Below, piece after piece: positions 52,450-57,961 of a stretch of DNA of 64,000 bases. The notes beneath the pieces are model-generated. The model saw nothing but the letters and a program-made list of their open reading frames with translations. It did no database searches and had not been told where the DNA came from. The first letter of the stretch is position 1; each line of letters opens with the position of its first letter. The DNA comes from Acidobacteriota bacterium (lineage in GTDB: Bacteria > Acidobacteriota > UBA6911 > RPQK01 > CBDAPI01), in contig CBDBGQ010000053.1 of the NCBI GenBank assembly GCA_965205345.1, positions 129,842-193,841 on the forward strand, written 5' to 3'. The position numbers were made by a program, and so were the translations under genes.

Positions 52450-53019
52450 TTAGTCGGCCTTGATCTGGAGGGGTGCCGCCCGGTAGCTTGTCTCGACTTC
52501 GGCCTTCTCGAGCCTCTGCCCGCGCCCGGTCAGTTCCACGGAGTCTCCCGACTGAAGGAAGTTCTCGCCCTCAATTCGAATGGTCGCGGAATTGCGTCCT
52601 TCCCAGATCTCGGATCGCTGCAGGAAAACAGCAAAGGCCTTGGGATCCGGCTGCGTATAGGCAAAGCCTCAATCTTCCAGATCTGCAACCATTCCCCGCA
52701 TCTCCGGTGTCAGGTCACCACTGCCCCCCACGGTGGTCCTCTGCAGCTTGCCGTCGATGTCGTAGCGAACCTTGACGAGACGCGTGACAGGCTCCCCGCT
52801 AACAAGAACTTCCGTACGTTTCGTCCAGCTGTAGGCACGCAGCATTTGTTGGTTCTGCGACATCTTCTGGGCAATCTGCTGATTCTTGGACTGAGCTCGG
52901 AGCTGAGTAGCTGGAACCAGCATCAGGCCAAGAGCGACTGTCATGACTCCTCGAACCCATCCCCACTGGCTTGCTGAGTATGAATCCCGCGCAACATTGT
53001 TCTCTCTTGACAATGTCAT
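52450..53019 (-). CDS. Secreted hypothetical protein whose reading frame contains an in-frame TGA at 52666-52668
   Basis: Has a signal-like segment MTVALGLMLVPATQLRAQS. The protein-like sequence runs ...TPEMRGMVADLED-TGA-GFAYTQPDPKAFAVFLQRSEIWEGRNSATIRIEGENFLQSGDSVELTGRGQRLEKAEVETSYRAAPLQIKAD, ending at TAA (52450-52452). There is no start codon after the TGA. Confidence 0.4.
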
Positions 53020-53254
53020 GGAACGATCCTCCGTTAATATTCTTGTGCTGCGTTACGAACCTGCCGACGTTCTCACGCCGTGCCGCCCGGTTCCCGAGGG
53101 TATCAGGAGTTGCCATCGATTCCAAGGGCGAGGTGGGGCCGATTCGCCTTGCTCCAGAGCAGCATACAACTCACCCAGAACCGGGAGAATCTAGGGGCCG
53201 GTATCCCACAACCTAGTGCAGCTCGCCAAAAGTTTGGTAGTGGGTCAGTTTGAA

Positions 53255-54148
53255 TTAGGTAGTATTCTTTTTGTACGGTCCACGGGTCAAATATCCCGCG
53301 TGCATCTCTTCTCGCTCCTTCTGTTCTAGAAGTCCAACGATCTCCTCTGTTTCCCACACATGATCCGAGACACCAACTTCCATTGCGGGGGTCACTCTCA
53401 GACTACTATGGACCCTAGCGAAGTTGTAGTACATGAAGTGAAGCGCTACGGCATGGCATAGATTCTCTACCTTTTTGCTGAAAGCATTGGTCAAGCGGGT
53501 AAACCGCCTCATGCTCATTCGCATCGTGAGGTTCTGTCTCTCCACATAGCTGGTTGAGATGAAGTCCGGATTCGGGTTTCCAGTGACTGTCTCCCGTTTG
53601 GTTCTGTTGCACTTTGCTGGGCTGTAACGGCTCTCTTTCTCTACCGGGGGCGCACCGTACACCTTGATGAGCATGGAATAGTCCACGTCTCCACCGAAAG
53701 CTCCATCTACGGCTTCCAGGTAGACCTTGTGGCCGTCAGTGGTTAGCTGGATGCGATTGGCCATCCTATCTGCCAGATCGCGCATGAACAGGGAGGCGGT
53801 ATCTCCGTCCCTGTTTCCAACCATCCAAGTTGGGACGATCTTGGTATCAGCGCAGATCGCCGTCCATGTCCAGACATCACCATATCCGAACTCCCCTTGT
53901 CTTTCCTCTGGAACGTTGGAAGCCTTCGAGTAGCAGAACGACCAAATCTCGTCACACTCGATCCGCTTACATGATAGATCCCGTAGGGTTTCATGCTGAT
54001 ACTCAGCGCAGACCTCGCCAATCTCCGCCAGGAGCTTCACGACCGTGTTTTTAGATACGCCGGTCATCCTGACGGTGGATCGGATGGAGTTACCCTCAAC
54101 CAGGGCGGAAACGATCTGAACCCTCTTTTTGGTGGAAAGCCTGTTCAT
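53255..54148 (-). CDS. IS1/IS1595-family DDE transposase
   Basis: Has an N-terminal HTH (STKKRVQIVSALVEGNSIRSTVRMTGVSKNTV). Blocks CDEIWSFCYSKASN, TDGHKVYLEAV and YVERQNLTMRMSMRRFTRLTNAFSKKVENLCHAVALHFMYYNFARVH...TPAM parallel the IS1 InsB / IS1595 catalytic region. Confidence 0.65.
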   Translation of the reverse strand: MNRLSTKKRVQIVSALVEGNSIRSTVRMTGVSKNTVVKLLAEIGEVCAEYQHETLRDLSCKRIECDEIWSFCYSKASNVPEERQGEFGYGDVWTWTAICADTKIVPTWMVGNRDGDTASLFMRDLADRMANRIQLTTDGHKVYLEAVDGAFGGDVDYSMLIKVYGAPPVEKESRYSPAKCNRTKRETVTGNPNPDFISTSYVERQNLTMRMSMRRFTRLTNAFSKKVENLCHAVALHFMYYNFARVHSSLRVTPAMEVGVSDHVWETEEIVGLLEQKEREEMHAGYLTRGPYKKNTT

Positions 54149-54236
54149 AGGAATATTGTGCCTGATTTAGCTTACACAGTCAAGCATTCTTATGACTTTG
54201 CTTTTTTGCGCAGACTGATGTGTTAGCCTCCTAGGC

Positions 54237-55382
54237 ATGGAAGAATGCCACATGGACTGTAAAACTCCGGGCCAATTGATCAGGGCGCTTTTGGAGGAAT
54301 ACGGCTGGACACAGAGGGTCTTGGCAATAGTGCTGGATGTCGATGAAACTGGAATAAACAAGATCGTATCGGACAAGCGGCCCATTAAAGCCGAAATGGC
54401 TATCTTGCTAGGTGAGCTTTTCGACACTCCCGCCGAGAGATTCCTAGAACTTCAGAAACTCTACGATCTTGCGAAAGCCAGGTTTTCCGCACGCCCAGAC
54501 GCAGGCCGGACAAATCGGGCGCATCTATTTGGTGGCCTACCAGTCACGGAGATGATTAAGCGGAGGTGGATAGAAGCCAAGGATATTAAGGACGTATCCG
54601 CCGTGGAGTCTTCTCTGGCGAGATTTTTCGGGGTTTCTTCGCCCCAGGAAATAGAGATTCTTCCGCACGCTGCCAAGAAAACCGTTGTTTCGTGTCCGGC
54701 CAGCCCCAGCCAGTTGGCATGGATCTACCGGGTGAAGCAAATCGCCAGTGAAATGCTTGTCCCTCCATACTCAACAGTGGCTCTAAAGAAGGCCCTCCAT
54801 AGGTTGAGTGCCTTGTTGTCGGCACCCGAAGAAGCCCGCATGGTACCAAGAATACTTGCCGAGAGCGGAATCCGTTTTGTCATTGTCGAATCTATTTCCT
54901 CGGCCAAGATAGATGGTGTTTGTTTTTGGTTAGACGACCGTTCTCCTATTGTGGGAATGTCACTTCGATTTGATCGTATCGACAACTTCTGGTTCGTCCT
55001 TAGGCATGAATTAGAACATGTCTACAGAAAGCATGGACGCATAGCCGTGGCCCTAGATGCGGAGCTGGAAGGCGATCGCGCTGGAACCGGCTCCCACATT
55101 CCTGAGCAAGAACGAATCTCCAACATGGCAGCCGCTGAATTTTGCGTGCCCTCAGAGAGTATGGACAGCTTCATCGCCCGAAAAGCGCCGTTTTTCGCGC
55201 AGCGGGATCTGCTTGGATTCGCCACAACATTGGGCGTTCATCCAGGTCTAGTGGCTGGCCAACTACAGCATCGGACGGGCCGTTATGATCTATTCCGAAA
55301 TCATTTGTCTAAGATAAAGTTTGCCGTCGCTCCCAGTGCTATGGTCGATGGTTGGGGCGACGTTGCCCCTGTGGAGATGTGA
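54237..55382 (+). CDS. XRE-family HTH domain fused to ImmA/IrrE-family zinc metallopeptidase (COG2856-like)
   Basis: N-terminal Cro/C1 HTH (GQLIRALLEEYGWTQRVLAIVLDVDETGINKIVS). C-terminal HEXXH motif (RHELEHV) with downstream Glu, typical of ImmA/IrrE. Confidence 0.75.
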   Translation: MEECHMDCKTPGQLIRALLEEYGWTQRVLAIVLDVDETGINKIVSDKRPIKAEMAILLGELFDTPAERFLELQKLYDLAKARFSARPDAGRTNRAHLFGGLPVTEMIKRRWIEAKDIKDVSAVESSLARFFGVSSPQEIEILPHAAKKTVVSCPASPSQLAWIYRVKQIASEMLVPPYSTVALKKALHRLSALLSAPEEARMVPRILAESGIRFVIVESISSAKIDGVCFWLDDRSPIVGMSLRFDRIDNFWFVLRHELEHVYRKHGRIAVALDAELEGDRAGTGSHIPEQERISNMAAAEFCVPSESMDSFIARKAPFFAQRDLLGFATTLGVHPGLVAGQLQHRTGRYDLFRNHLSKIKFAVAPSAMVDGWGDVAPVEM

Positions 55383-55399
55383 TAGGAGAAAAAGGAACA

Positions 55400-55873
55400 A
55401 TGGGAAAAACTAAAGAAATGCAGTTGATCATCAAGCAGTACAAGGACATGACCGGAGAGACACAAGTGGATATACATAAGGTGGCGAAGTTCGCTGCTGA
55501 TATGGGATGGCCCTTGTCGCAACCAGAGGACCCTCTTGATCGGCTTGCGCAGAGTTTTACCAGAGCCGCTCGTAAGGAGATCAAAAAAGACAAGGCCACA
55601 AACAGGACGTATCGCGTTAATCATGCAATCCCTGATCCAACCGGGCAGTATTCGCTTTGGATCGACATCGATGAAGCTCCAAGAAAGCACATGCACAAGT
55701 CTCTGGTTAATCGACGGGAGCAGATGGTAGGCGATGGACTGCAACTGACGCTTGATGCGGATCACTGGAACCGAATCAATCCAAACGAGGAACCGATTCA
55801 GCTACCCATGGACTTTACTCAAGACGTTGAATGGCGAAAGAATGCACCGCAAAGGGATCGAGAGGCGAGCTAG
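55400..55873 (+). CDS. Hypothetical protein (157 aa) immediately downstream of the HTH-ImmA gene, inside the IS
   Basis: Has a good RBS (aggagaaaaaggaacaATG). I recognise no family and it has no TM. The ORF-track start at 55352 overlaps the ImmA gene, so the internal Met is preferred. Confidence 0.45.
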   Translation: MGKTKEMQLIIKQYKDMTGETQVDIHKVAKFAADMGWPLSQPEDPLDRLAQSFTRAARKEIKKDKATNRTYRVNHAIPDPTGQYSLWIDIDEAPRKHMHKSLVNRREQMVGDGLQLTLDADHWNRINPNEEPIQLPMDFTQDVEWRKNAPQRDREAS

Positions 55874-56154
55874 TCAGAATTAGACTTCTTTTTCCAGCGT
55901 GCTTCTGCAGCAGTTTTGGCAATCTCAGAGCGTTGCTCTGGTGTCAGGCTTTGGGCCCGTGCTTTCCCTCCTTTTTGCCCTCCACCGCTTCCCAGGATGG
56001 CCCCACCTAGTTTCAGTAATTCCTCATCGGATAACCTCTGCCGGAGCTTGGCCAACTCCGCATGTATCCGCTCGTCAGAAGTAGCCTCTCCTGTGGTCTC
56101 TCTCAGGATTCGAGCGGCCACTTCGTTAGGATCGCTATCTTGTCGTCTGGGCAT
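55870..56154 (-). CDS. Small hypothetical protein (94 aa) with basic Lys/Ala-rich C-terminal tail
   Basis: C-terminus is GGQKGGKARAQSLTPEQRSEIAKTAAEARWKKK, suggestive of a nucleic-acid-binding tail. It is the first gene inside the right IR, convergent with the 157-aa gene. Confidence 0.4.
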   Translation of the reverse strand: MPRRQDSDPNEVAARILRETTGEATSDERIHAELAKLRQRLSDEELLKLGGAILGSGGGQKGGKARAQSLTPEQRSEIAKTAAEARWKKKSNSD

Positions 56155-56250
56155 GATTGAATTATGTCAGATGGGACCCAGGGCGTGAAGGGCTTAGGAT
56201 TCAAACTGACCCACTACCAAAAGTTTTGACCCAGGCCAGCACCATCTACC

Positions 56251-57703
56251 CTAGCAGCCCGTGGTGAAAGTCGAGGATAAGGGGTCACACAGCGACACTA
56301 GACTGACCCCATGGCAATGGGGAAAAAGAAACGTCGACAGCAAGAAGACCTGTGGGTCGCCACCAGTGAGCTGCCCCGCACCGCCGGCCATCCCTTCTAC
56401 GAAAGACTGAATGGCCTTTTCAACGAACACGGCTTTGACGACTTCGTGGAGGGACTGTGTGCGAAGTTCTATGCAGACAAGATGGGGCGACCGAGCCTGG
56501 CTCCGGGAGTGTACTTTCGGCTGCTGCTGGTGGGGTATTTCGAAGGGATCGGATCGGAACGAGGAATAGCCTGGAGAGCAGCTGATTCTCTGGCACTGCG
56601 AGAGTTTCTGGGATTGAAACTGAGCGAGTCGCCGTCTGATCACTCCACGATCTCCCGAACCCGACGACTGATCGATGTGGCTACCCACGAAGCAGTCTTT
56701 GACTGGGTACTGAAGCGGATCGGGGCGAGCGGCCTGCTGCGGGGCAAGACGATCGGCATCGATGCCACTACGCTGGAAGCGAATGCAGCGCTGCGCAGCA
56801 TCGTGCGCCGGGACAGCGAGCAGGGGTATGAAGAGTTTTTGATGGAGCTGGCGAAAGCCTCCGGGATTGAGACGCCGCGACGGGAAGATCTGGCCAAACT
56901 GGACCGCAAGCGCACGGGCAAAGGATCGAACCGGGTTTGGAAGCACCCGCATGATGCGGATGCGCGGATTACCAGAATGAAGGACGGGCGGACGCACCTG
57001 GCGCACAAGGCGGAGCATGCAGTGGATCTGGAGACCGGAGCGATTGTCTCGGTGACGGTACAGGGAGCCGATCAAGGGGACACGCAGACCATGGTGAAGA
57101 CCCTGACGGAAGCGGCCGAGAAGGTGGAACAAGCGCTGCCGGAGGGACGAGGCATCGAAGAGGTGGTGGCCGACAAGGGGTATCACAGCACGCAGCGGAT
57201 GGTGGACCTGGATGCGGTGGGACTGCGCAGCTATGTGAGCGAACCGAGGCGAGGGAAGCGACGCTGGCGAGGAGACCGGCAGGGGCAGGAAGCGGTGTAT
57301 GCGAATCGGCGGCGCATCCGGGGAGAGCGAGGGCAGCGGCTGCTGCGGCAACGAGGAGAGCAGCTGGAGCGACCCTGTGCGCATCTGTACGGGAGCGGAG
57401 GGATGAGACGGCTGCATGTACGGGGACATGAGAATGTGTTGAAGCGACTGCTGATCCAGGTGAGCGCCTTCAATCTGGGGATGCTGATGCGTCAGAGCCT
57501 GGGTGTGGGAACGCCGCGGGGTCTGCAGGGGCGGATTTGCGCCCTGATGCTACTGATTTTGTCGCTGTTCAAGCGTCTTAAGGGCCTGTTCGGACTGATT
57601 CCGGCTGCTTGGCCCGAAAAACCCAACTCAGCGACCCCTTCGCTGCTTCCACCCGTGGGTACCACCTGAGCTCAGAAAACGTACTTCCACCACGGGCTGC
57701 TAG
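56251..57703 (+). mobile_element. IS5/IS1182-family insertion sequence flanked by CTAG on both sides
   Basis: TIRs are ctag-cagcccgtggtgaaagt (56251-56271) and acttccaccacgggctg-ctag (57683-57703). Confidence 0.7.
56311..57669 (+). CDS. IS5/IS1182-family DDE transposase
   Basis: Has an InsH-like N-terminal domain (FYADKMGRPSLAPGVYFRLLLVGYFEGIGSERGIAWRAADSLALREFLG). The C-terminal DDE region includes VADKGYHS. Confidence 0.75.
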   Translation: MAMGKKKRRQQEDLWVATSELPRTAGHPFYERLNGLFNEHGFDDFVEGLCAKFYADKMGRPSLAPGVYFRLLLVGYFEGIGSERGIAWRAADSLALREFLGLKLSESPSDHSTISRTRRLIDVATHEAVFDWVLKRIGASGLLRGKTIGIDATTLEANAALRSIVRRDSEQGYEEFLMELAKASGIETPRREDLAKLDRKRTGKGSNRVWKHPHDADARITRMKDGRTHLAHKAEHAVDLETGAIVSVTVQGADQGDTQTMVKTLTEAAEKVEQALPEGRGIEEVVADKGYHSTQRMVDLDAVGLRSYVSEPRRGKRRWRGDRQGQEAVYANRRRIRGERGQRLLRQRGEQLERPCAHLYGSGGMRRLHVRGHENVLKRLLIQVSAFNLGMLMRQSLGVGTPRGLQGRICALMLLILSLFKRLKGLFGLIPAAWPEKPNSATPSLLPPVGTT

Positions 57704-57864
57704 TGTACTGTCCGGGAAGTTCGCGTCGTTAATTCGGGATGGATTTTCGTCGTCAGTGAGGCGCGCGACGCAGCAATGCCGGGAGTATTTCGAGGTAGCG
57801 CAACAAAGCTGTCGGCGAAAAGACGCCCGAAGTAGCGGCGTGAACTTTCCGGACAGTGCACTAG
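57700..57864. mobile_element. MITE copy B (~165 bp), flanked by CTAG, abutting the IS5/IS1182 right end
   Basis: Reads ctag-tgtactgtccgggaagttcgcg ... cgtgaactttccggacagtgca-ctag. It is the reverse complement of copy A at about 90 percent identity and shares its left CTAG with the IS terminal CTAG. Confidence 0.7.
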
Positions 57865-57961
57865 CGACTCGTTTTGCCAAGATCGGTTGCAGAACTAGAA
57901 AGACCAGCCTACGGATGTGGTGATTCCAAAATCGTTGCTCTCCACGTCAGACCCGGGGGGA

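Follow-up and report, generated by a model that had tools for sequence, protein, structure and literature searches.

Canonical IS1 carries two consecutive ORFs, insA and insB', which are joined by a -1 frameshift (PMC10017437). Cargo with a bearing on the element's own persistence is known from Tn3-family transposons, whose toxin-antitoxin pairs pass between related transposons and have been suggested to stabilise their carrier (Lima-Mendez et al. 2020, PMC7157771). PD-lambda-2 of E. coli ECOR42 is an experimentally validated abortive-infection anti-phage system (Vassallo et al. 2022, PMC9519451), in which the HTH-peptidase B is toxic and the HigB-like A neutralises B (PMC9519451). In the IrrE and CapP architecture, the XRE repressor is a separate substrate and the peptidase has a C-terminal GAF-like sensor (PMC13228613).

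The locus described here lies in a 64,000-nucleotide stretch of DNA (the window). It is a genuine, intact and recently active mobile element, a transporter insertion sequence (IS) of the IS1 family with 20-bp repeats as its ends, and is a member of a large cross-phylum lineage that moves a conserved pair of genes. The first gene of the pair encodes an HTH fused to an M78 peptidase (HTH-M78) and the second an uncharacterised 157-aa protein (p157).

Anatomy and family of the insertion sequence

With refined boundaries the element measures 2,983 bp (53236-56218, window coordinates), and its features are as follows.

53228-53235, no strand: left copy of the target-site duplication, 8 bp, AAAAGTTT; the same 8-mer lies immediately outside both repeats
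53236-53255, forward strand: terminal inverted repeat at the transposase end, GGTAGTGGGTCAGTTTGAAT, exact 20-mer
53255-54148, reverse strand: IS1-family DDE transposase, 297 aa, single ORF, with an N-terminal HTH
54155-54183, reverse strand: promoter-like site for the transposase (TTGACT, 17 nt, CACAAT; consensus scan)
54195-54216, no strand: imperfect palindrome ACTTTGC-N8-GCAGACT, putative HTH-M78 operator
54237-55382, forward strand: HTH-M78, fusion of a HigA-type XRE HTH and an M78 (ImmA/IrrE) zinc peptidase, 381 aa
55400-55873, forward strand: p157, 157-aa protein of an uncharacterised family, 17 nt past the HTH-M78 stop
55870-56154, reverse strand: p94, very probable IS backbone gene for a 94-aa basic helical protein, present in 42/44 bounded elements
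56161-56189, reverse strand: promoter-like site for p94 (TTCACG, 17 nt, TG-CATAAT; consensus scan)
56199-56218, reverse strand: terminal inverted repeat at the p94 end, perfect reverse complement of 53236-53255
56219-56226, no strand: right copy of the target-site duplication, 8 bp, AAAAGTTT

We regard this anatomy as nearly certain. The backbone runs from terminal repeat through p94, a cargo slot and the single-ORF DDE transposase to the second terminal repeat, and the slot holds a two-gene operon divergent from the transposase, whose stop codon abuts the repeat at 53236-53255. A third site for the 20-mer was not found in the window with up to three mismatches allowed, and the repeat match arose in 0/100 shuffles. 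The original prediction had given the repeats as ~33 bp with a perfect 23-bp core; repeats are indeed present, but their length was overstated, because the surplus bases belong to the 8-bp direct repeat AAAAGTTT, which is nearly palindromic and so makes the inverted repeat look longer than 20 bp. The GC content of the element is 50-53%, versus 55-62% in the flanks.

That the repeats are the element's termini, as predicted, is borne out by the target duplication here and by copies elsewhere. The same 2,983-bp element occurs in at least three other contexts, with encoded proteins 99-100% identical; these near-identical copies occupy other sites in related metagenome contigs, and one of them is flanked by the duplication GATGAGCC. 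The search for further copies of the repeats and genes that the prediction had proposed yielded 44 bounded relatives with the same ends in multiple phyla, 1.35-5.1 kb long, of which 30 have perfect 8-bp duplications, and the 20-mer marks element ends in more than 120 genome contigs from many phyla. Repeats without a transposase, which the prediction had named as a sign against their being termini, do exist, but these are 68-bp miniature derivatives of the lineage with target duplications of their own, and they thus support the repeats as termini. The entire 2,983-bp unit transposes, yielding 8-bp target duplications. Four-gene elements of the same kind, at 50-65% identity, are found in Chloroflexota, Alphaproteobacteria, Acidobacteriota and many metagenomes, which rules out a one-off capture of the cargo.

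The transposase had been called IS1/IS1595-like, and the IS1 half of that assignment stands. Its best model was NCBIfam transpos_IS1 (E = 7.9e-16; 58.6 bits, below the cutoff of 100), and the match to Pfam DDE_Tnp_IS1 (PF03400) was marginal (25.1 bits, gathering score 24.1). Membership of the IS1595 family was rejected: model NF033547 reached 24.6 bits (cutoff 75; E = 1.9e-5), a weaker match than that to the IS1 model, and Pfam DDE_Tnp_IS1595 gave no match. All 8,000 candidate clusters that were scored are related to the transposase (E ≤ 0.001), and among the matches listed many carry the name "IS1 family transposase" (NCBI and JGI). Conservation of D66, D138 and E203 reaches at least 97% across 120 sequences; an N-terminal zinc-finger signature was not detected. 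IS1-family terminal repeats begin GGnnnTG according to ISfinder, a pattern fitted by both ends of the element (GGTAGTG...), and the 8-bp duplications fit the 8-9 bp target-site duplication of the family. The two-ORF insA/insB' frameshift layout is absent and the transposase is a single 297-aa ORF, so that the element groups not with classical IS1 but with single-ORF IS1 relatives, which we take to be the ISMhu11-type subgroup in ISfinder.

The cargo pair and the p94 gene

The XRE HTH fused to an ImmA/IrrE peptidase that had been predicted was recovered by profile searches. HTH-M78, for which an alternative start at 54252 would give 376 aa, matched HigA TIGR02607 above cutoff (E = 2e-14) as well as Pfam HTH_3 and Peptidase_M78, the latter above its gathering score. 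The HEXXH motif is H257-E258-x-x-H261; its residues H257, E258 and H261, together with E292, do not vary among 32 diverged copies. Pfam detected no domain besides HTH and M78, leaving about 65 residues after the M78 domain, and no GAF-like sensor domain was detected. The gene is not generic: by profile comparison it matches component B of PD-lambda-2, a validated defence system (PADLOC PD-Lambda-2_B, PDLC03982; E = 5.9e-39, aligning residues 19-358 with profile positions 68-388 of 402). An identity with RosmerTA was rejected, since in the PADLOC search the RmrA matches were weak and partial (E = 0.0017 and 0.0029, a single domain each) and the RmrT toxin gave no match.

The p157 start is preceded by the predicted Shine-Dalgarno sequence (GGAG/AAGGA), and this together with the 17-nt gap suggests that p157 is co-transcribed with HTH-M78. 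The protein had been described as lacking a recognisable family, and comparisons of sequence and fold likewise gave no match to a known toxin, effector or family; p157 and its homologues had no PADLOC match at E ≤ 1, and none matched the PD-Lambda-2_C model. Its family comprises 923 clusters, with 38 invariant columns across phyla.

The true cargo consists of these two genes. HTH-M78 is upstream of p157 in 49/49 loci, and the divergences of the two proteins are correlated (r = 0.86), far more strongly than either is with the transposase (r = 0.28 and 0.19). Both are conserved across phyla at 55-70% identity. Among p157 copies with full flanks, 24/32 lie inside the IS lineage and 8/32 outside. 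Pairs without transposase or p94 occur in a Pandoraea Tn7-like element, a Burkholderia integrase island and an Achromobacter prophage, and the neighbours of such non-IS copies include Shedu, Abi, type I restriction-modification and BrnA genes. On plasmids of Paraburkholderia and Thauera, more distant relatives of HTH-M78 are preceded by HigB-like genes; of the two, only the Paraburkholderia plasmid has a p157 homologue next, which gives a three-gene version (HigB-like gene, HTH-M78, p157 homologue). Achromobacter phage CF418P1 has a comparable three-gene layout, whose first gene (95 aa) had no Pfam or PADLOC match.

The third supposed passenger, the convergent 94-aa protein with a KARA...EQRSEIAKTAAEARWKKK tail, is real as a gene and has that tail (C-terminal motif GGKARAxxLTPEQRSEIAKxAAxARW), but its distribution is that of a backbone gene, leaving two of the three predicted passengers. 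Where p94 is found among the bounded elements (42/44), it is on the transposase strand in 41 and starts within 200 bp of the IS end opposite the transposase in 37. It is present in elements without the HTH-M78 cargo, is missing from HTH-M78/p157 pairs outside the IS, and co-occurs with the transposase rather than with the pair alone (23/1/1/7, Fisher p = 2e-5). We therefore consider it very likely that p94 belongs to the backbone of this IS lineage. Here its stop codon overlaps that of p157 in CTAG, and its promoter-like site sits between the terminal repeat and its ATG. The protein had no match in Pfam, NCBIfam or PDB families, and a weak AlphaFold model (pTM 0.31) had no match to known DNA-binding folds; p94 is probably a DNA-binding accessory protein of the IS itself.

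The palindrome at 54195-54216 has the divergent transposase promoter on one side and the cargo start on the other, and 5/7 of its positions are complementary in the present copy. Palindromes of the GTTTGC-N5-12-GCAAAC type, strictly defined, precede HTH-M78 in 20/43 IS copies versus 2.5% of shuffled sequences, and lie at -38 to -40 in four non-IS copies. The transposase promoter-like site ends 6 nt before the ATG, implying a leaderless or near-leaderless mRNA, and sister elements keep TTGAC...CATAAT immediately before the transposase ATG. The gap between the transposase and HTH-M78 genes is 88 bp here, with no ORF inside, and mostly 83-128 bp (at most 412 bp) in the IS copies. The fixed placement of the cargo against the transposase promoter would also suit a role in transposition control.

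Possible roles of the cargo

The layout of the pair is that of a type II toxin-antitoxin system, with adjacent genes, a 17-nt gap, a HigA-type HTH and a conserved promoter palindrome. The slots of sister elements hold Fic/DOC, DUF4258 toxin, SocA_Panacea and NYN genes, a BglII-type restriction-modification pair (BglII and MT-A70) and an AbiEii-like ATPase. Together with the PD-Lambda-2_B match, these modules make the predicted toxin-antitoxin or defence cargo a reasonable reading, and we put the probability that the pair is an autoregulated toxin-antitoxin or defence-type (abortive-infection) module, akin to PD-lambda-2, at roughly 60%. An HTH-M78 dimer would bind, via its HigA-type HTH, the palindrome overlapping its own promoter, keeping the operon low, and would also restrain p157, the proposed effector. 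The peptidase-repressor would be activated or consumed by a trigger, which might be loss of the element or, as with ImmA, IrrE and CapP, phage infection, damaged DNA or ssDNA; p157 would then be released or over-produced and the cell would arrest. The cargo would then serve the IS as an addiction or host-benefit device, favouring its retention and its spread between phyla. The choice of p157, rather than HTH-M78, as the putative growth-arresting partner is tentative, at somewhat less than even odds.

That polarity may be reversed, since component B is toxic in PD-lambda-2 and its component A has no counterpart here; the HigB-like gene expected upstream of B was not found in the 88-bp gap before HTH-M78. 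HTH-M78 would then be the toxic effector and p157 its neutralising partner, an antitoxin or inhibitor replacing A. PD-lambda-2B is toxic alone and is rescued by its partner (PMC9519451), the catalytic site is invariant in IS copies even though these have no HigB-like gene, a toxin-then-antitoxin order is that of higBA, and p157 never occurs without HTH-M78, whose relatives also pair with other partners. We nevertheless think reversal unlikely. A p157 homologue stands beside a HigB-like gene in the Paraburkholderia version, and possibly in the phage version too, so p157 is no simple replacement of A; the PD-lambda-2 gene downstream of B is required for defence, not neutralisation (PMC9519451); and antitoxins are usually DNA-binding autorepressors.

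HTH-M78 might instead be primarily a stress-sensing repressor of the IS, acting at the palindrome to silence the transposase in the manner of ImmR/ImmA. Damage or phage would activate the peptidase, the repressor would be cleaved, the transposase and p157 would be induced and the element would jump, with p157 as anti-repressor, sensor or transposition cofactor. The geometry is suggestive: in every IS copy HTH-M78 and the transposase are transcribed divergently, the palindrome is ~12 bp from the transposase -35 box, and additional cargo is always inserted elsewhere than at the HTH-M78/transposase junction. The operator half-site TCAGTTTG is identical to the inner part of the terminal repeat, and sisters without the HTH-M78 cargo have AAACTGAC immediately upstream of the transposase -35. 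Pairs of M78 and XRE proteins govern mobile-element induction (ImmA/ImmR) and damage responses (IrrE/DdrO, CapP/CapH), and Tn3 toxin-antitoxin pairs at the tnpA/tnpR promoter region have been suggested to belong to the transposition module (PMC7157771). Against this, the pair is conserved with the same operator outside any IS (8/32 fully flanked loci, and prophages, islands and Tn7-like cargo), so a function that needs the transposase is ruled out; transposition goes on in many sister elements that lack the pair; the pair and the transposase co-diverge only weakly (r = 0.19-0.28); and a HigB toxin and defence candidates are found linked to related HTH-M78 genes. We consider this role rather improbable.

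A more elaborate arrangement, which we would likewise give long odds, makes HTH-M78 a dual switch that represses both the effector operon and the transposase from one operator between divergent promoters, with p157 and p94 as new classes of protein. The operator would then overlap a native binding site resembling the terminal repeat, phage or DNA damage would bring host growth arrest and a transposition burst together, and an ImmR/ImmA-style induction circuit would fit within only 3 kb; p157 would represent a new effector or anti-repressor class and p94 a new IS-encoded end-binding protein.

That the pair is neutral passenger DNA, with a host-level regulatory role outside conflict systems, captured once and carried passively, is very improbable: p157 has no toxin-like features and diverse genes can ride on transporter insertion sequences, but both genes are 55-70% identical across phyla and the active site does not vary, the pair occurs on mobile elements only, and the same slots elsewhere hold toxin-antitoxin, restriction-modification and Abi genes.

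Comparison with known systems

The element shares with classical IS1 the IS1-type catalytic region of its DDE transposase, its GGTAGTG ends (GGnnnTG) and the 8-bp duplication, and as with insA/insB a gene for a small basic protein lies at one end and the transposase at the other in the same direction. Here, however, the transposase carries an HTH of its own and involves no frameshift fusion, p94 and the transposase lie on either side of a 1-3 kb cargo slot, and each of the two has its own promoter-like site. p94 occupies the position corresponding to InsA but is unrelated to it, having neither a zinc finger nor an HTH_Tnp_IS1 match. Transporter insertion sequences of the IS1595 family, the ISPna2+ and ISNwi1+ groups, resemble the element in their 8-bp duplications, related DDE fold and passenger genes between terminal repeats.

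Like PD-lambda-2, the cargo has a B-type HigA HTH with an ImmA/IrrE peptidase, a nearly full-length PADLOC match (E = 6e-39), and a further gene after B in the operon, and both systems are on mobile DNA; unlike PD-lambda-2, the module is embedded in an insertion sequence. ImmR/ImmA, DdrO/IrrE and CapH/CapP likewise combine an M78 HEXXH peptidase with an XRE-type repressor and a promoter palindrome (the operator here being putative) and are tied to mobile elements and immune operons. Repressor and peptidase are a single polypeptide here, in contrast to those systems, and the gene predicted to be regulated is that for the uncharacterised 157-aa protein.

As with the toxin-antitoxin pairs of Tn3 transposons, a putative addiction-type module adjoins the transposase promoter region instead of lying with ordinary passengers, and modules of this kind are acquired and exchanged among related transposons and proposed to stabilise the transposon itself. 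The present element differs in belonging to the IS1 family, in its far smaller size (3 kb) and in having no resolvase or res site. Its cargo is an HTH-peptidase pair rather than one with a ParE, PIN, Gp49 or HEPN toxin, and, unlike the Tn3 pairs, this one cargo type dominates the entire cross-phylum lineage.

Anatomy, family and spread of the insertion sequence

The segment of about 3 kb that the original prediction placed between inverted repeats is an IS1-family insertion sequence (the IS) of 2,983 bp, at 53236-56218. Its anatomy is clear at the level of sequence:

53228-53235 and 56219-56226: target-site duplication, 8-mer AAAAGTTT, directly outside both repeats
53236-53255, plus strand: terminal repeat, exact match to the 20-mer GGTAGTGGGTCAGTTTGAAT
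53255-54148, minus strand: transposase, 297 aa
54155-54183, minus strand: promoter-like site of the transposase gene
54195-54216: imperfect palindrome ACTTTGC-N8-GCAGACT, 12 bp from the transposase promoter-like site
54237-55382, plus strand: HTH-M78, the HTH-peptidase, 381 aa
55400-55873, plus strand: p157, 157 aa
55870-56154, minus strand: p94, 94 aa
56161-56189, minus strand: promoter-like site of the p94 gene
56199-56218, minus strand: second terminal repeat, exact match to the same 20-mer

Repeats had been described as about 33 bp long with a perfect 23-bp core. They are present at both ends, but each is 20 bp; the excess is the target duplication, which is almost its own reverse complement and hence lengthened the apparent core. 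The 20-mer had no further copies in the 64-kb window at ≤3 mismatches and no matches in 100 shuffles. GC content is 50-53% in the element versus 55-62% in its flanks. An Rfam search of 53000-56500 (E ≤ 1) found no RNA family, and so lends no support to an RNA antitoxin.

A second insertion sequence (56247-57707) begins 20 bp beyond the right-hand target duplication and encodes a 452-aa IS1182/IS5-type transposase (56311-57669). Because it has its own 25-nt inverted repeats, at 56247 and 57707 (92% complementary), the two elements are adjacent and nesting of one in the other was ruled out. A further inverted repeat of 47 nt (57692-57738 and 57826-57872; 81% complementary, arms 87 nt apart) overlaps, with its left arm, the IS1182-type element's right-hand terminal repeat (57683-57707).

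The transposase scores slightly over the gathering threshold of Pfam DDE_Tnp_IS1. Its best NCBIfam transposase model is IS1 (E = 8e-16), yet under the curated cutoff; the IS1595 model is far worse (E = 2e-5), so that only the first half of the proposed 'IS1/IS1595-like' assignment was retained. All 8,000 scored candidate clusters proved related to it (E ≤ 0.001), the sources that name these clusters use 'IS1 family transposase', and D66, D138 and E203 are each at least 97% conserved among 120 members. The ends (GGTAGTG) and 8-bp duplication are consistent with the ISfinder description of IS1. Unlike classical IS1, which has a two-ORF frameshift layout (PMC10017437), the element's transposase lacks this layout, placing it with the single-ORF IS1 relatives. 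Literature on ISMhu11 and on IS1-type elements with defence cargo yielded no description of the element.

The 2,983-bp unit recurs in related metagenome contigs in differing surroundings, with encoded proteins 99-100% identical, and is thus evidently mobile, transposing as a whole. The copy in locus L002 has its own target duplication, GATGAGCC; that in L003 adjoins an aspartate-kinase operon; those in L001 and L004 sit among IS256 and IS630 fragments, their flanks separated by recombination. L002 and L003 belong to one contig (ENA ERZ25766727 ctg361133, ~160-173 kb and ~202-215 kb), with the copies ~40 kb apart and inverted relative to each other. Their right flank is common (aspartate kinase and aspartate-semialdehyde dehydrogenase genes) while their left flanks differ, which suggests an IS-associated duplication or inversion.

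When one genome per species was scanned, the exact 20-mer occurred in at least 120 contigs; those listed come from Acidobacteriota, Actinomycetota, Chloroflexota, Proteobacteria, Planctomycetota, Nitrospira, Verrucomicrobiota and others. Taking these contigs together with loci found through the cargo, and counting an element wherever a transposase homologue lies between two repeat copies, the search for further repeats and genes that had been proposed gave 44 bounded elements of 1.35-5.1 kb. Perfect 8-bp target duplications flank 30 of the 44, and 3 more match at a one-base offset; transposases of the diverged copies are 51-68% identical.

The search also returned 33 short repeat-bounded units, 12 with perfect 8-bp duplications. 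Among them is a conserved 68-bp miniature element, found in unrelated genomes and flanked by 8-bp target duplications, in which two copies of the 20-bp repeat enclose a 28-bp core, TTTGACCCCTTGTGTCACGATCAAGAAA (L014:6760-6827, L041:3210-3277, L064:2096-2163, L074:5829-5896, L125:2423-2490 and others); larger miniatures with the same ends span 58-600 bp. The repeats therefore do occur without the transposase, but as miniatures with duplications, which marks them as transposase substrates and leaves their reading as element termini intact.

Plasmids of two cultured bacteria carry the complete four-gene unit: Mesorhizobium loti (L215:1504-4314, CP050295) and Methylocapsa polymorpha (pRX1, L211:1837-2727). 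The M. loti genes are annotated 'IS1 family transposase / HTH protein / hypothetical / histone H1'. Both records treat the genes as unrelated, call p94 'histone H1' and leave the element itself unannotated; the transposase goes under 'helix-turn-helix domain-containing protein' in one of them and under 'IS1 family transposase' in the other.

The p94 gene and the cargo of sister elements

The 94-aa protein had been counted among the passengers, an assignment that did not survive comparison across the lineage. A profile built from p94 homologues found a p94-like gene in 42/44 elements, including elements that lack the HTH-M78/p157 pair. In 41 of these 42 it lies on the transposase strand, and in 37 its start is ≤200 bp from the end opposite the transposase. 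Among 32 metagenome loci found via p157 with sufficient flanking sequence, 23 had both p94 and transposase, one had only the first, one only the second, and seven had neither (Fisher p = 2e-5), and copies of the pair in Pandoraea, Burkholderia and Achromobacter lack both. Because p94 tracks the transposase and the IS ends rather than the pair, it is best assigned to the IS, and it seems to serve the lineage as a core accessory protein.

The p94 gene converges on p157, their stop codons overlapping in CTAG. It holds the position that insA has in IS1, with its own promoter-like site immediately inside the terminal repeat. The protein is basic and predicted to be helical, with an invariant motif, GGxxGGKARAxxLTPEQRSEIAKKAAxARW, which pipelines call 'histone H1'. 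Profile search of the PDB, Foldseek, and Pfam on 47 members found no relatives, and the structure prediction that had been suggested gave a low-confidence model (pTM 0.31). Composition and position make p94 a candidate DNA-binding protein.

Several other cargoes are stacked onto elements already carrying the pair, and further elements with the same ends and p94 carry different cargo:

Cargo of sister elements
Pair plus stacked cargo (L166:888-5077, L152:2713-6758, L164:186-4136, L007:2857-6793, L201:3383-8495): BglII-type endonuclease with MT-A70 methylase; Fic/DOC with an 80-aa partner (the Fic/DOC cargo of the lineage comes with a small gene upstream); NYN-domain protein; SocA_Panacea with a 156-aa partner; 341-aa and 172-aa membrane pair
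Same ends and p94, other cargo (L038, L061, L062, L070, L076, L083, L101, L119): AAA_21 (AbiEii-like) ATPase with GNAT acetyltransferase; ClpP-like SDH proteases; P63C; Bro-N; proteasome-like protein; DUF4258 toxin with HTH partner; three-gene set with HTH_26 regulator

Extra cargo always lies between the transposase 3' end and the repeat or between p157 and p94; among sister elements it was never seen between the transposase and HTH-M78 genes.

The HTH-M78/p157 pair and its putative operator

The fusion of an HTH to an ImmA/IrrE peptidase was borne out. The N-terminus of HTH-M78 is a HigA-type HTH, over the TIGR02607 cutoff, whose nearest solved structures are the HigA and GraA antitoxins; the M78 (ImmA/IrrE) peptidase domain occupies residues 215-313, and none of H257, E258, H261 and E292 varies among 32 diverged copies. 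HTH-M78 matches PADLOC PD-Lambda-2_B over nearly its full length (E = 5.9e-39). RosmerTA was considered and dropped, matches to its antitoxin RmrA being weak and partial.

PD-lambda-2 was found by functional selection in E. coli; its component A is a HigB-like protein, B is an HTH-peptidase that is toxic alone and rescued by A, and C is required for defence (PMC9519451). The element differs in having no component A, since just 88 bp separate the HTH-M78 and transposase genes. In the PADLOC models p157 matches neither A nor C, so that its identification as component C finds no support. Loci in Pantoea and Acinetobacter, where a PD-lambda-2-like enterobacterial trio was sought on plasmids, have other architectures.

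The p157 gene starts 17 nt past the peptidase stop codon, preceded by GGAG/AAGGA. More than 900 relatives at 55-70% identity come from very different bacteria; a profile search gathered 923 clusters at 50% identity, whose members are without exception stand-alone and ~160 residues long. None of the clusters is annotated, in keeping with the prediction that p157 belongs to no recognisable family. p157 has 38 invariant columns. Its AlphaFold model is confident (pLDDT 82.5) but unlike any solved structure; it comprises three helices, a small sheet of four strands and one long helix. HTH-M78 lies directly upstream in 49/49 loci with enough room to tell, and the two proteins' divergences are tightly correlated (Mantel r = 0.86), versus weak correlations with transposase divergence (r = 0.28, p = 4e-4; r = 0.19, p = 0.02). 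Given this constant association with a peptidase-repressor of the kind found in a validated anti-phage system, p157 stands out as a likely new effector or regulator.

The IS lineage, in constant layout, houses 24 of the 32 fully flanked p157 loci. Elsewhere the pair is cargo of a Tn7-like element in Pandoraea, or lies within an integrase island in Burkholderia or beside lysis genes in an Achromobacter prophage. A more distant version, on a Paraburkholderia plasmid, has three genes: one for a HigB-like toxin, then HTH-M78, then a homologue of p157. This layout recurs in Achromobacter phage CF418P1, where the first gene encodes 95 aa without a match to any family and the p157 homologue has an hhalign probability of 99.7%. 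On Thauera sp. K11 plasmid pTX1, HigB-like toxin and HTH-M78 genes are followed by one for a 419-aa protein (L213:3871-5127), the PADLOC candidate PDC-S54 (E = 8e-162). PD-lambda-2B-type proteins thus pair with several alternative third components, which makes the HTH-peptidase a hub with exchangeable partners, p157 among them.

In the 88-bp divergent region, the transposase promoter-like site (TTGACT, 17 nt, CACAAT) ends 6 nt before the ATG, an arrangement conserved in sister elements, as is the pattern GCATAATGGTCAGTATG before the ATG. This site and that of p94 end 6-7 nt short of their start codons, leaving no room for a Shine-Dalgarno sequence, which implies leaderless mRNAs. The palindrome nearby has better versions, AGTTTGCG-N6-8-CGCAAACT, in many diverged IS copies. 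In non-IS copies (Pandoraea, Burkholderia, two metagenome loci) it is fixed at -38 to -40 from the start codon and overlaps a plausible -35 box and spacer. Strictly defined, it occurs in 20/43 IS loci and 4/16 non-IS loci, versus 2.5% of shuffled sequences. Since it travels with the HTH-M78 gene, it is most simply read as that gene's own putative operator.

The half-site in IS copies, TCAGTTTG, exactly matches the inner portion of the terminal repeat (54195-54216 versus 53244-53252); in cargo-free elements (L058, L118, L126) the equivalent position, immediately upstream of the transposase -35, reads AAACTGAC. The likeness may be coincidental, the shared stretch being a 6-8-mer; alternatively, fusion of the operator onto a native putative binding site may have produced it.

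Proposed function and comparison with known systems

We infer, from sequence and gene context, that the cargo would be a toxin-antitoxin-like or abortive-infection module, much as first proposed. Pointing this way are the match to PD-lambda-2B, relatives linked to HigB, a context made up solely of mobile elements, the kinds of genes that otherwise fill the same slots, and the autoregulatory palindrome. In the favoured mechanism p157 would be the effector, restrained by the repressor-peptidase HTH-M78, which would respond to infection or damage after the manner of ImmA, IrrE and CapP. The pair might alternatively serve transposition control, a role that echoes the one proposed for toxin-antitoxin pairs in Tn3 transposons (PMC7157771); the cargo's fixed junction with the transposase promoter speaks for it, and the pair's independent occurrence outside the IS speaks against it. 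The PD-lambda-2 experiments point to the reverse polarity, HTH-M78 rather than p157 arresting growth, which we consider unlikely.

Literature searches found no description of an IS1 lineage with a conserved p94 gene and cargo slots, of its cross-phylum spread with near-identical termini, or of the p157 family as dominant partner of a PD-lambda-2B-type protein. p157 and p94 represent two uncharacterised families worth testing, and recognising the elements has practical use, as annotation pipelines now break each one up into genes with no stated connection, labelled 'HTH protein', 'hypothetical' and 'histone H1'.

Passenger genes in insertion sequences, Tn3 toxin-antitoxin pairs and HTH-peptidase defence components are already known, and phages, plasmids, integrative elements and transposons of the Tn7 or Tn3 type are familiar carriers of defence and addiction genes. 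The carrier here is an IS1-type insertion sequence of 2-5 kb. Genes of toxin-antitoxin, restriction-modification and Abi type occupy its internal slots, and its termini hardly differ between Acidobacteriota, Actinomycetota, Chloroflexota, Planctomycetota and Proteobacteria. The layout provides a compact, naturally occurring system in which to ask whether control of the transposase involves addiction or defence cargo, a link already proposed for Tn3.
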